NCBI RefSeq assembly: GCF_055900595.2
Contig: NZ_CM148325.1
Reading direction: 5' to 3' (one strand)
DNA length: 64,000 nt
Shown here: positions 42,868 to 46,392 of the stretch, piece after piece
How positions within the stretch are numbered: position 1 is the first letter of the stretch
How the letters are laid out: every line of letters starts with the position of its first letter
The notes under the pieces: model-generated
Database searches by the model: none
Seen by the model: only the letters and a program-made list of their open reading frames with translations
Told to the model about the DNA's origin: nothing
Made by a program: the position numbers and the translations under genes

Positions 42868-45045
42868 ATGATTACTCGTATTCATCGCAATTCTTTCTCT
42901 TTAAATATTAATAATACAGCCCAGACAAATGAACACCAAAACCTGAGTGAATTGTTTTATAAAGAACTCGAGAATAAATTTTCTGGCAAGGAGCTGGGGA
43001 CACCTCTATTAAAAAGCTTCTCAGAAAACTGTAGACAAAACGGCCGTCATATCTTTAGTAATAAGGATTTTGTCATTAAATTTTCCACGTCTGTCTTACA
43101 GGCTGATAAAAAAGAAATTACGATAATTAATAAAAATGAAAACACGACACTCACTCAAACCATTGCTCCAATATTTGAAGAATACCTAATGGAAATTTTA
43201 CCTCAACGCTTAGACACTCTTGATAAACAAGAATTAAACCTAACCTCAGATAGAAAAGAAAAAGAATTTCCAAGAGTTAAACTTAATGGTCAATGTTATT
43301 TTCCGGGGCGCCCCCAAAACCGTATAGTATGCCGACACATTGCTGCACAATATATTAATGATATTTATCAGAATGTTGATTACAAACCCCATCAAGATGA
43401 TTATTCTTCAGCTGAAAATTTTCTCGCTCACTTCAACAAAAAATGCAAAAACCAGACTTTGGCGTTAATTTCCAGCCGTCCTGAGGGGCGTTGTGTTGCT
43501 GCCTGCGGTGATTTCGGTCTAGTTATGAAGGCATATTTTGACAAGATGGAATCAAATGGTATCAGTGTTATGGCGGCCATATTATTGGTGGATAACCATG
43601 CTTTGACGGCCCGGCTAAGAATAAAAAATACAACTGAAGGATGTACCCATTACGTGGTTTCGGTTTATGATCCTAATGTAACTAACGATAAAATAAGAAT
43701 CATGAGCGAAAGTAAAGAGGATATTAAACACTATTCTCTGATGGATTTTATGAATGTAGATTATAGCCTCCTGAAATGGTCAAATGATCATGTTATTAAC
43801 CAATCTGTTGCAATAATTCCAGCACTTCCGAAAGAGCAGCTATTGATGTTAAAAGGATCTGTGGATGAAATAACCCCTCCATTATCACCTGCAACGATGA
43901 ATTTGCTCATGGCAATTGGTCAGAATCACAAACTTACGCAGCTGATGATTCAGCTCCAGAAAATGCCAGAACTACATAGAACAGAAATGTTGACTGCCTA
44001 TAATAGTATTAACCTACCAGGTTTATATTTGGCTATAAATTATGGTAATGCGGATATCGTTGAGACTATTTTCAATTCACTGTCAGCTCCTGGATATGAA
44101 GAATTACTCTCGAAAAAAAACCTCATTAATATTGTGGAGGCAAAAGATAAAAATGGTTGTTCTGGATTATTTTTAGCGATATCACGTAAGGATAAAAATG
44201 TCGTAACCTCGATTCTGAACGCCTTACCTAAACTTGCTGCTACACATCATTTAGATAACAAACAGGTGTATAAAATCCTGAGTGCCAAAAGTAGATCGTC
44301 CAGCCATGTTTTATACTATATTATGGCGAATGGTGATGCCGACATGCTGAAAGTTTTTTTGGATGCATTACCTTTGTTAATTCGCACATGTCATTTGACT
44401 AAAGAGCAGGTACTCGATCTCCTGAAGGCAAAGGATTTTTATGGTTACCCGGGGCTATACCTGGCGATGCAAAATGGGCATAGCGATATCGTGAGAGTTA
44501 TACTCGAAGCATTGCCCTGTCTGGCCCAGGAAATTAACATTTCCGCTTCTGATATTGTAGATCTTCTGACCGCCAAAAGTCTTGCGCGCGACACGGGTTT
44601 GTTTATAGCCATGCAGCGCGGACATATGAACGTTATTAAGACTATTTTTAACGCATTACCCACTCTGTTTAATACGTTTAAATTCGATAAAAAAAATATG
44701 AAGACCCTCCTCCTGGCAAATAATTCTAATGAATATCCCGGTTTGTTTTCAGCGATACAGCATAAACAACAAAACGTTGTAGAGACGGTTTATCTTGCTT
44801 TATCTGACCATGCACGCCTTTTTGGATTTACCGCTGAAGATATTATGGATTTTTGGCAACATAAAGCGCCACAAAAATACTCTGCCTTTGAGTTGGCTTT
44901 TGAATTGGGTCACCGGGTTATTGCTGAATTAATCCTTAATACGTTAAATAAGATGGCTGAAAGCTATGGCTTTACGGATAACCCTCGATACATCGCGCTG
45001 ATGAATCCCCTAATGATTTTTATCAAAATCATTAAGTTAAGGTAG
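42868..45045 (+). CDS. arpA: Ankyrin-repeat protein ArpA, 3' end interrupted by IS10 (reading frame runs 16 codons into the IS before stopping)
   Basis: 725-aa AT-rich ORF with repeated ~33-aa ankyrin-like units (YPGLYLAMQNGHSDIVRVILEAL, DTGLFIAMQRGHMNVIKTIFNAL, YPGLFSAIQHKQQNVVETVYLAL); frame leaves chromosomal sequence at 44997/44998 and ends with IS10-encoded LMNPLMIFIKIIKLR. Confidence 0.88.
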   Translation: MITRIHRNSFSLNINNTAQTNEHQNLSELFYKELENKFSGKELGTPLLKSFSENCRQNGRHIFSNKDFVIKFSTSVLQADKKEITIINKNENTTLTQTIAPIFEEYLMEILPQRLDTLDKQELNLTSDRKEKEFPRVKLNGQCYFPGRPQNRIVCRHIAAQYINDIYQNVDYKPHQDDYSSAENFLAHFNKKCKNQTLALISSRPEGRCVAACGDFGLVMKAYFDKMESNGISVMAAILLVDNHALTARLRIKNTTEGCTHYVVSVYDPNVTNDKIRIMSESKEDIKHYSLMDFMNVDYSLLKWSNDHVINQSVAIIPALPKEQLLMLKGSVDEITPPLSPATMNLLMAIGQNHKLTQLMIQLQKMPELHRTEMLTAYNSINLPGLYLAINYGNADIVETIFNSLSAPGYEELLSKKNLINIVEAKDKNGCSGLFLAISRKDKNVVTSILNALPKLAATHHLDNKQVYKILSAKSRSSSHVLYYIMANGDADMLKVFLDALPLLIRTCHLTKEQVLDLLKAKDFYGYPGLYLAMQNGHSDIVRVILEALPCLAQEINISASDIVDLLTAKSLARDTGLFIAMQRGHMNVIKTIFNALPTLFNTFKFDKKNMKTLLLANNSNEYPGLFSAIQHKQQNVVETVYLALSDHARLFGFTAEDIMDFWQHKAPQKYSAFELAFELGHRVIAELILNTLNKMAESYGFTDNPRYIALMNPLMIFIKIIKLR
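44989..44997. repeat. IS10 target-site duplication, left copy (TACATCGCG)
   Basis: 9-bp direct repeat identical to 46327..46335, immediately flanking the IS10 ends. Confidence 0.9.
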
Positions 45046-46326
45046 ATACACATCTTGTCATATGATCAAATGGTTTCGCCAAAAATCAATAATCAGACAA
45101 CAAAATGTGCGAACTCGATATTTTACACGACTCTCTTTACCAATTCTGCCCCGAATTACACTTAAAACGACTCAACAGCTTAACGTTGGCTTGCCACGCC
45201 TTACTTGACTGTAAAACTCTCACTCTTACCGAACTTGGCCGTAACCTGCCAACCAAAGCGAGAACAAAACATAACATCAAACGAATCGACCGATTGTTAG
45301 GTAATCGTCACCTCCACAAAGAGCGACTCGCTGTATACCGTTGGCATGCTAGCTTTATCTGTTCGGGCAATACGATGCCCATTGTACTTGTTGACTGGTC
45401 TGATATCCGTGAGCAAAAACGGCTTATGGTATTGCGAGCTTCAGTCGCACTACACGGTCGTTCTGTTACTCTTTATGAGAAAGCGTTCCCGCTTTCAGAG
45501 CAATGTTCAAAGAAAGCTCATGACCAATTTCTAGCCGACCTTGCGAGCATTCTACCGAGTAACACCACACCGCTCATTGTCAGTGATGCTGGCTTTAAAG
45601 TGCCATGGTATAAATCCGTTGAGAAGCTGGGTTGGTACTGGTTAAGTCGAGTAAGAGGAAAAGTACAATATGCAGACCTAGGAGCGGAAAACTGGAAACC
45701 TATCAGCAACTTACATGATATGTCATCTAGTCACTCAAAGACTTTAGGCTATAAGAGGCTGACTAAAAGCAATCCAATCTCATGCCAAATTCTATTGTAT
45801 AAATCTCGCTCTAAAGGCCGAAAAAATCAGCGCTCGACACGGACTCATTGTCACCACCCGTCACCTAAAATCTACTCAGCGTCGGCAAAGGAGCCATGGA
45901 TTCTAGCAACTAACTTACCTGTTGAAATTCGAACACCCAAACAACTTGTTAATATCTATTCGAAGCGAATGCAGATTGAAGAAACCTTCCGAGACTTGAA
46001 AAGTCCTGCCTACGGACTAGGCCTACGCCATAGCCGAACGAGCAGCTCAGAGCGTTTTGATATCATGCTGCTAATCGCCCTGATGCTTCAACTAACATGT
46101 TGGCTTGCGGGCGTTCATGCTCAGAAACAAGGTTGGGACAAGCACTTCCAGGCTAACACAGTCAGAAATCGAAACGTACTCTCAACAGTTCGCTTAGGCA
46201 TGGAAGTTTTGCGGCATTCTGGCTACACAATAACAAGGGAAGACTCACTCGTGGCTGCAACCCTGCTTACTCAAAATCTATTCACACATGGTTACGTTTT
46301 GGGGAAATTATGAGGGGATCTCTCAG
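44998..46326 (+). mobile_element. Insertion sequence IS10 (IS4 family), complete 1329-bp copy
   Basis: Outside end CTGATGAATCCCCTAATGATTTT... at 44998 and inside end ...GGGGAAATTATGAGGGGATCTCTCAG at 46326; single 402-aa transposase ORF; flanked by a perfect 9-bp direct repeat. Confidence 0.95.
45105..46313 (+). CDS. IS10 transposase
   Basis: 402-aa product MCELDILHDSLYQFCPELHLKRLNSLTLACHALLDCKTLTLTELGRNLPTKARTKHNIKRIDRLLGNRHL..., recognised as the Tn10/IS10 transposase. Confidence 0.97.
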   Translation: MCELDILHDSLYQFCPELHLKRLNSLTLACHALLDCKTLTLTELGRNLPTKARTKHNIKRIDRLLGNRHLHKERLAVYRWHASFICSGNTMPIVLVDWSDIREQKRLMVLRASVALHGRSVTLYEKAFPLSEQCSKKAHDQFLADLASILPSNTTPLIVSDAGFKVPWYKSVEKLGWYWLSRVRGKVQYADLGAENWKPISNLHDMSSSHSKTLGYKRLTKSNPISCQILLYKSRSKGRKNQRSTRTHCHHPSPKIYSASAKEPWILATNLPVEIRTPKQLVNIYSKRMQIEETFRDLKSPAYGLGLRHSRTSSSERFDIMLLIALMLQLTCWLAGVHAQKQGWDKHFQANTVRNRNVLSTVRLGMEVLRHSGYTITREDSLVAATLLTQNLFTHGYVLGKL

Positions 46327-46335
46327 TACATCGCG
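46327..46335. repeat. IS10 target-site duplication, right copy (TACATCGCG)
   Basis: Identical to 44989..44997. Confidence 0.9.
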
Positions 46336-46392
46336 GAGAAAAATAAGATGGAAGCTTTACTCAAAAAAGCATCTCCCCATATCGTACGCTAA
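46327..46392 (+). pseudogene. arpA: Displaced 3' remnant of arpA (last ~22 codons incl. duplicated YIA; ends TAA at 46390-46392)
   Basis: In the arpA frame once IS10 is removed: [21 protein letters not shown]; convergently overlaps the aceK 3' end. Confidence 0.75.

Follow-up and report, generated by a model that had tools for sequence, protein, structure and literature searches.

A solo IS10 of the IS10-Left sequence type at the 3' end of arpA in an Escherichia coli strain related to E200086

The interrupted arpA-aceK junction

The window, i.e. the whole 64-kb stretch of DNA that was analysed, carries an IS10 element at the junction of the convergent genes arpA and aceK, framed by two copies of the 9-mer TACATCGCG (Table 1). 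As read from the sequence, the element starts with CTGATGAATCCCC and ends with GGGGATCTCTCAG, its ends forming imperfect inverted repeats of ~23 bp that start with CTGA, and 1329 of its 1329 bases are those of the Tn10 copy on plasmid R100. The element is thus a known IS10, and it is the site that is new.

Table 1. Features of the interrupted arpA-aceK junction, with positions in the window
Feature	Position	Strand	Details and basis
Chimeric arpA ORF	42868..45045	+	native codons 1-710 (to 44997) plus 15 IS codons
Left target-site duplication TACATCGCG	44989..44997		sequence and repeat search
Complete IS10, IS10-Left sequence type, 1329 bp	44998..46326	+	outside end 44998, inside end 46326
Outside-end terminal inverted repeat, 23 bp	44998..45020	+	matches inside end at 17/23
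RNA-OUT antisense RNA gene	45043..45112	-	IS nt 115 to 46; Rfam RF00240
dam site GATC	45064..45067		IS nt 67-70
IS10 transposase gene, 402 aa, intact	45105..46313	+	ORF and NCBIfam NF033591
Inside-end terminal inverted repeat	46304..46326	-	holds second dam site GATC (46317-46320)
Right target-site duplication TACATCGCG	46327..46335		sequence and repeat search
Orphaned arpA 3' end, 18 codons plus stop	46336..46392	+	rebuilt gene, E200086 annotation
aceK, intact, 578 aa	46361..48097	-	ORF; convergent with arpA and IS10 transposase
Clermont quadruplex arpA amplicon, 400 bp	46372..46771		ArpA1.r 46372-46391, AceK.f 46752-46771

The preliminary description had proposed a comparison with an uninterrupted E. 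coli arpA-aceK junction. When the IS and one copy of the repeat were deleted in silico, the rebuilt junction was 100% identical over 1000 bp to that of eight complete E. coli genomes, and TACATCGCG, which is present twice in the window, was single-copy in the empty site of these relatives. Consistent with this, the BLAST alignment with strain E200086 is interrupted precisely at 44997/46327, the two aligned segments sharing 9 bp of the subject, while the rest of the 64-kb window is colinear with this strain at 99.9-99.98% identity. A perfect 9-mer at both IS ends has a chance probability of ~4e-6, but in view of the empty-site test a chance origin of the pair is irrelevant. The target agrees with the IS10 hotspot consensus NGCTNAGCN at three of the six specified positions and thus departs from the preferred sequence; such a match is unremarkable and offers no positive support. 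As the consensus describes a target preference and not a requirement, this mismatch leaves the assignment to IS10 unaffected.

At the left side of the element, the chimeric arpA ends with ...NPRYIA followed by LMNPLMIFIKIIKLR, its TAG stop codon (45043-45045) corresponding to IS nt 46-48. After rebuilding, the gene codes for 728 amino acids, in agreement with the 2187-bp arpA annotated in E200086, and 45045 is accordingly not the native end of arpA. ArpA has therefore lost its 18 C-terminal residues (711-728) and gained 15 IS-encoded ones. In native ArpA, the Pfam domain Toxin_15 covers residues 130-379, and weak ankyrin matches extend to approximately residue 640, whereas the lost tail is located outside any Pfam domain. 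As this tail lies outside the recognisable domains of ArpA, the insertion is most likely fully or almost neutral. For genome annotation, arpA is to be recorded as carrying an IS10 that disrupts its 3' end, with little significance beyond that.

At the right side, the aceK stop codon (46361-46363, minus strand) is found 34 nt from the inside end, and the orphaned arpA 3' end overlaps the 3' end of aceK by 32 bp. The insertion leaves aceK, like the other genes of aceBAK, intact. Transcription of arpA would have entered aceK in antisense even in the uninterrupted locus.

The claims of the preliminary description regarding a complete 1329-bp IS10 with an intact 402-aa transposase, a perfect target-site duplication, an exchanged ArpA C-terminus and a distance of ~35 bp between the inside end and the 3' end of aceK were all confirmed by these data. 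Its wording that the insertion is in frame holds insofar as the arpA frame enters the IS for 15 codons, but no fusion of ArpA with the transposase results. The Clermont amplicon had correctly been placed at the aceK-arpA junction; its whole length, however, falls to the right of the IS, which does not interrupt it. Each of the primers ArpA1.r and AceK.f has one mismatch in the window, and since the 400-bp amplicon is situated beside the insertion and not across it, the Clermont PCR would still give an arpA-positive result for the strain.

Sequence type and control elements of the IS10 copy

The element matches positions 36132-37460 of R100 (NC_002134.1), the gltS/jemA-side arm of Tn10, at 100%, whereas 15 diagnostic positions distinguish it from the tetD-side arm of the same plasmid, with 15/15 agreeing with the gltS/jemA side. 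On the Tn10 map, we take the gltS/jemA-side arm to be IS10-Left, so that the naming of the two arms rests on the literature together with this map. Judged by its nucleotide sequence, the window copy is thus of the IS10-Left type and not a canonical IS10-Right. The latter, which is the copy behind nearly all mechanistic work, shares length and organisation with the window copy at 98.9% identity, and nt 904-1248 are identical in both. Six of the 15 substitutions (nt 24, 25, 27, 47, 83 and 107) are located in the first 107 nt, and the transposases differ by four protein changes (I266V, S381L, T389A and V398A). The first 107 nt of IS10 comprise the outside end and the pIN/pOUT/RNA-IN:RNA-OUT region. 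In textbooks, IS10-Left is said to supply transposase poorly or not at all. Along the same lines, PMC11148124 reports IS10-Right as the fully active arm and quotes older literature in which the IS10-Left transposase is called defective or inactive.

Except for its setting, the window copy agrees with IS10-Left of Tn10 on R100 in its ends, transposase, RNA-OUT and dam sites; the R100 copy is an arm of a composite transposon, whereas the window copy is a solo element in a chromosomal gene with a 9-bp duplication of its own. The transposase protein is WP_001352368.1, the same accession as that of the copies in NEB5alpha, which have been termed IS10L (PMC11481808). The PGAP name of this protein is 'IS4-like element ISVsa5 family transposase'. 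One of these copies, fhuA::IS10L (NZ_CP017100.1, 168787-170115), differs by 1 nt from the window copy and is likewise framed by a 9-bp duplication, TGCTCAATC, although its target differs from that in arpA. The outside-end sequence of mini-Tn10 shows the variant of the other arm, not that of the window copy (PMC12488917).

The transposase was recognised as a member of NF033591 (IS4 family transposase; 402 bits, cutoff 152). By the residue numbering of the Tn10 transposase, the DDE residues D97, D161 and E292 as well as the Y-R-E-K signature of the IS4 family (Y285-R288-E292-K299) are present. RNA-OUT was detected at the full length of RF00240 with 97.3 bits (gathering score 41, E 5e-20); its fold reaches -21.3 kcal/mol (z = -4.0), and its gene overlaps the 5' end of RNA-IN as well as the start codon of the transposase. 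Both dam sites of IS10 are present, at IS nt 67 and 1320, the former (nt 67-70) being situated in the region of the -10 element of the transposase promoter pIN (PMC5006887). The published promoters pIN and pOUT were not detected by a sigma-70 scan of the window, and their positions are drawn from the literature and the RNA-OUT match. As far as can be read from its bases, the copy retains all known control elements of IS10, namely RNA-OUT, two dam sites and both ends. We also considered the published 'fold-back' protection of the transposase start from read-through, here from arpA. Base pairing does cover the start codon in the minimum-energy fold of the arpA read-through RNA; this fold, however, has the same energy as those of shuffled sequences (z = 0.05) and was thus not used as evidence.

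Origin of the insertion

Very probably, a single IS10-Left copy transposed by the usual IS10/Tn10 route into the end of arpA in a strain related to E200086, and no feature of the sequence conflicts with this account. By this route, a DDE transposase would have moved the element through non-replicative cut-and-paste and cut the target with a stagger of 9 bp, from whose repair the duplication arose. The target, which is not a hotspot, lies 18 codons ahead of the arpA end, in a rare lineage of E. coli to which E200086 is related; the transposase gene is co-directional with arpA, and the outside end faces the arpA body. The transposase for this hop may have come from the copy itself or from an IS10-Right elsewhere in the genome, both sources being left as alternatives because the older literature calls IS10-Left defective.

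The insertion event is probably recent, as the preliminary description had suggested, which is supported by the complete identity of the IS, the exact empty site in relatives and the occurrence of the junction in no other genome. The IS10-arpA junction was found in 0/5,426 complete E. coli genomes and was as well not found in GTDB species representatives or JGI metagenome contigs, and the exact chimeric ArpA protein had no match in a gene/protein-position index. This unique junction could act as a strain-specific marker. IS10-like DNA, on the other hand, was present in 1902 of the 5426 complete E. coli genomes (35%), and 100% identical copies of the IS10L type split chuA, cirA and nupG, among many other genes, in other genomes.

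The uniqueness of the arpA insertion among the collections searched would also be expected of a laboratory or cloning artefact, in which an IS10 from a cloning host, or one mobilised in passage, had produced an insertion absent from the wild strain. IS10 copies are present in the cloning hosts DH10B, DH5alpha and NEB5alpha; insertion of such copies into cloned DNA has been described (PMC2729077), as have hops into plasmids in the course of culture (PMC11481808). Nevertheless, identical IS10L-type copies are common in natural isolates too, and a recent, unique natural insertion would look just like such an artefact, which we consider very unlikely.

Equally improbable is that the insertion was selected, either by an altered aceBAK expression, through antisense transcription from the inside end or a changed aceK 3' end, or by the loss of ArpA. 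The closeness of the inside end to the aceK stop codon speaks for such an effect, and outward promoters, pIII and OUTIIp, are placed within IS10 nt 1000-1230 by work cited in PMC11481808, a stretch that is identical between the window copy and IS10-Right; any transcript leaving the inside end, whether outward-initiated or from read-through, would enter aceK in antisense. However, arpA converges on aceK with the same overlap even in the uninterrupted locus, and an intrinsic terminator was neither gained nor lost, as a consensus scan of the stretch from the insertion point to the aceK stop codon revealed a terminator neither in the window nor in the empty site. A weak hairpin followed by a U-run at 46336-46377 (minus strand) is kept; its stability does not exceed that of shuffled sequence, and it was therefore dropped as evidence either way. 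Furthermore, no independent insertions at the arpA site occur in the 5426 genomes, and recurrent selection is thus not indicated. Any effect of the insertion on aceBAK is speculation.

That the element is an arm or remnant of a composite Tn10, as its identity with the left arm on R100 might suggest, can be practically dismissed, as the 64-kb window holds a single IS10 and no tet genes, no jem genes adjoin the element, and the same 9-bp duplication with contiguous arpA on both sides is the signature of solo IS transposition; a composite Tn10, with paired inverted IS10 copies around tetR/tetA/tetC/tetD and jemABC, was accordingly rejected for this locus. Nor can the Tn10 history of the strain at which the preliminary description had hinted be deduced, since IS10-like DNA is so common in E. 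coli and no Tn10 is found here that the presence of the element says little in this respect.

Transposition of a solo IS10-Left being the preferred reading, it may be asked how mobile this variant is. A de novo hop of IS10L has been published (PMC11481808), and therefore this sequence variant does move. It is a tentative and rather doubtful extension that IS10-Left might be autonomously and efficiently mobile in nature, and that the differences at nt 83 and 107 in the RNA-IN/RNA-OUT pairing may allow it to escape in part the antisense cross-inhibition by IS10-Right copies. The fresh solo insertion described here and the identical copies across many wild E. coli chromosomes lend support to a mobile IS10-Left. 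As the hop itself is already on record, only the quantitative aspect and that of antisense specificity would be new, if true. The insertion serves as well as a reminder that the 'defective' IS10-Left variant is common in E. coli as a mobile solo element.

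Structure of the insertion and its empty site

Direct reading of the sequence gave the same values for the element, its duplication, the open reading frames and the distance to aceK as the preliminary description had done; the aceK stop codon lies 34 nt from the element end. The termini are imperfect inverted repeats, identical at 17 of 23 positions. Fifteen element codons (LMNPLMIFIKIIKLR) are appended to the arpA frame, followed by a TAG stop at element nt 46-48, with the loss of exactly 18 native codons.

Features of the insertion and primer sites (window coordinates)
Feature	Position	Strand	Size	Remarks
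IS10 element	44998-46326		1329 bp	starts CTGATGAATCCCCTAATG, ends GGGGATCTCTCAG; sequence read at 44800-46600
Target-site duplication TACATCGCG	44989-44997 and 46327-46335			both flanks, perfect
arpA ORF, interrupted	42868-45045		725 aa	upstream of transposase ORF
Transposase ORF	45105-46313		402 aa	start at element position 108; single long ORF spanning the element
RNA-OUT	45112-45043	minus		IS nt 115-46; Rfam 97.3 bits (gathering score 41), full length
GATC sites	IS nt 67 and 1320			
aceK	46361-48097	minus	578 aa	intact
AceK.f	46752-46771			one mismatch
ArpA1.r	46372-46391			one mismatch
ArpAgpE.f / ArpAgpE.r	43253-43553		301 bp	0 / 1 mismatches; predicted product, upstream of IS
yjaA.1b	53513-53532			exact match

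In silico excision of the element together with one copy of the 9-mer restored an arpA gene of 2187 bp (728 aa). A 1000-bp query over this rebuilt site showed 100% identity in eight complete Escherichia coli genomes, in which arpA and aceK converge with a 32-bp overlap and arpA is annotated as 'ShET2/EspL2 family type III secretion system effector toxin'; comparison with an uninterrupted junction, the check proposed at the outset, showed the 9-mer duplication to be genuine. The nearest genome, E200086 (stool, Mali), aligned to the window by BLAST in three blocks of 24.9 kb (99.98% identity), 20.5 kb (99.98%) and 17.7 kb (99.9%), and the sole break fell exactly at 44997/46327, with nine subject bases common to both flanking alignments. 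A simple insertion that duplicates 9 bp of its target leaves exactly this pattern. As the target 9-mer agrees with the hotspot consensus NGCTNAGCN at only three of six specified positions, this was not a hotspot insertion.

Identity and mobility of the element

All 1329 bases were identical to a Tn10 IS10 copy on plasmid R100 (NC_002134.1), and 100% identity was also found to many other plasmid and chromosomal IS10 copies. The transposase scored 402 bits against the NCBIfam IS4-family transposase model (cutoff 152) and retains D97, D161 and E292 as well as the Y285-R288-E292-K299 signature, in Tn10 transposase numbering. At the two GATC sites, dam methylation is known to control the transposase promoter (nt 67; PMC5006887) and the inside end (nt 1320). 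The span of the Rfam match to RNA-OUT agrees with the published end near nt 47 (PMC5006887), and the RNA is predicted to form a long hairpin, as expected (-21.3 kcal/mol, z = -4.0). All IS10-defining features readable from the sequence are present; R100 identity, open reading frame, catalytic residues, RNA-OUT and both ends bear out the initial claim of a complete IS10 with an intact transposase.

When aligned to both Tn10 arms of R100, the window copy was identical to the gltS/jemA-side arm and differed from the tetD-side arm at 15 positions, six of them within the first 107 nt (nt 24, 25, 27, 47, 83 and 107) and nine coding, four of which alter the protein (I266V, S381L, T389A, V398A). The product of the gltS-side arm is WP_001352368.1, the same protein as that of the NEB5alpha chromosomal copies. 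Mini-Tn10 ends derive from IS10-Right. The NEB5alpha copies with this protein have been called IS10L (PMC11481808), and the printed mini-Tn10 outside-end sequence bears the variant of the tetD-side arm (PMC12488917), which fits such an origin. By arm identity, protein name and mini-Tn10 end variant the element is of the IS10-Left sequence type, the one useful refinement of the earlier reading. The NEB 5-alpha fhuA allele (NZ_CP017100.1 168600-170300) is an IS10L-type insertion with a 9-bp duplication (TGCTCAATC), and a single base (T776C) separates that copy from the one in the window.

The six control-region differences cluster at the outside end (window 44998-45107), where nt 83 corresponds to base three of RNA-IN and lies within the RNA-OUT loop, and nt 107 adjoins the start codon and forms a G-U pair in place of G-C in the RNA-OUT stem. 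The outside-end differences might change the degree to which left-type and right-type copies inhibit one another. Literature quoted in PMC11148124 terms the IS10-Left transposase inactive. Two findings speak against this: a new IS10L insertion arose in culture (PMC11481808), and 100% identical copies disrupt chuA, cirA, nupG and other genes across many genomes. The variant is thus mobile in practice. The transposase that acted at arpA may have been its own or that of an IS10-Right elsewhere in the genome.

Consequences for arpA, aceBAK and Clermont typing

In the restored ArpA, a ShET2 N-terminal (Toxin_15) domain was recognised at residues 130-379, and weak ankyrin-repeat matches extended as far as residue 640 or so. 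No recognised domain includes the replaced tail (711-728), and its exchange would probably not affect ArpA strongly. An intact 526-aa ORF between ubiC and malM (14969-16549, minus strand) corresponds to a 'SopA family protein' in E200086, so that, with the ArpA/EspL-like gene, two type III effector-like genes lie in this core chromosomal region.

The aceK gene and the aceA-aceK spacer are unaltered. The spacer is taken up by three tandem Rfam naRNA4 matches of 61.6-85.3 bits (48125-48385, minus strand), which are palindromic units of the REP/BIME type, and a long plus-strand ORF overlapping them (48171-49109) is almost certainly spurious. Neither the window nor the empty site has a convincing intrinsic terminator between the aceK stop and the insertion point; a weak hairpin and its U-run are retained on the aceK side, with a stability no greater than that of shuffled sequence. 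Transcripts exiting the inside end, by transposase read-through or from pIII/OUTIIp, would be antisense to aceK, and the stretch in which work cited in PMC11481808 places these outward promoters (IS10 nt 1000-1230) is identical in the window copy. As arpA transcription converged on aceK already before the insertion, the effect on aceBAK raised in the preliminary description is possible but unsupported; that the insertion was selected because it alters the glyoxylate shunt appears highly improbable. Transcripts of arpA now enter the outside end. IS10 limits activation of its transposase by incoming transcripts ('fold-back inhibition'); the predicted read-through RNA fold pairs the transposase start codon, but with an energy no better than chance, and is not taken as evidence of such protection.

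The quadruplex arpA primers AceK.f and ArpA1.r yield a 400-bp product (PMC10716328), and the Clermont amplicon was located, as the preliminary description had suggested, at the aceK-arpA junction (46372-46771). The insertion is entirely to the left of this predicted product, and hence the strain would still score arpA-positive. Judging from the group-E and yjaA.1b primer matches, the arpA allele looks E-type and the strain yjaA-positive. Long ORFs are absent from about 52700 to 59200, which by the colinear E200086 annotation is an rRNA operon (16S, tRNA-Glu, 23S, 5S) in the yjaA-purH interval.

Distribution and recency

The insertion junction was not found in any of 5426 complete E. coli genomes, nor its 40-mer in GTDB species representatives or JGI metagenome contigs, and no record of the chimeric ArpA protein was found. 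The IS is free of substitutions when compared with the reference copy, the two copies of the duplication match perfectly, and the site is empty in relatives of 99.98% identity. Together these observations point to a recent, strain-specific event, in line with the recency first proposed. IS10 is notorious for jumping in cloning hosts and in the laboratory; since natural copies are equally common, we consider such an artefact very unlikely here.

IS10-like DNA occurs in 1902 of the 5426 genomes; an IS10L-type outside end is found in 749 records, and 1323 have only the IS10R type as best match. The presence of IS10 is thus in itself no pointer to Tn10. The 64-kb window holds neither tet genes nor a second IS10 copy, which excludes a composite Tn10 at the arpA locus, and the suggested Tn10 history finds no support here. 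The preliminary description was correct, and the insertion is an ordinary one, of a fully known element at a site where it had not been seen before. The rebuilt junction (window 44498-46835) reached at least 99% identity in only 10 of the complete genomes and 95-99% in about 4070. The lineage is rarely sequenced; among its closest relatives are isolates from human stool (E200086, Mali) and one from a dog in South Korea.
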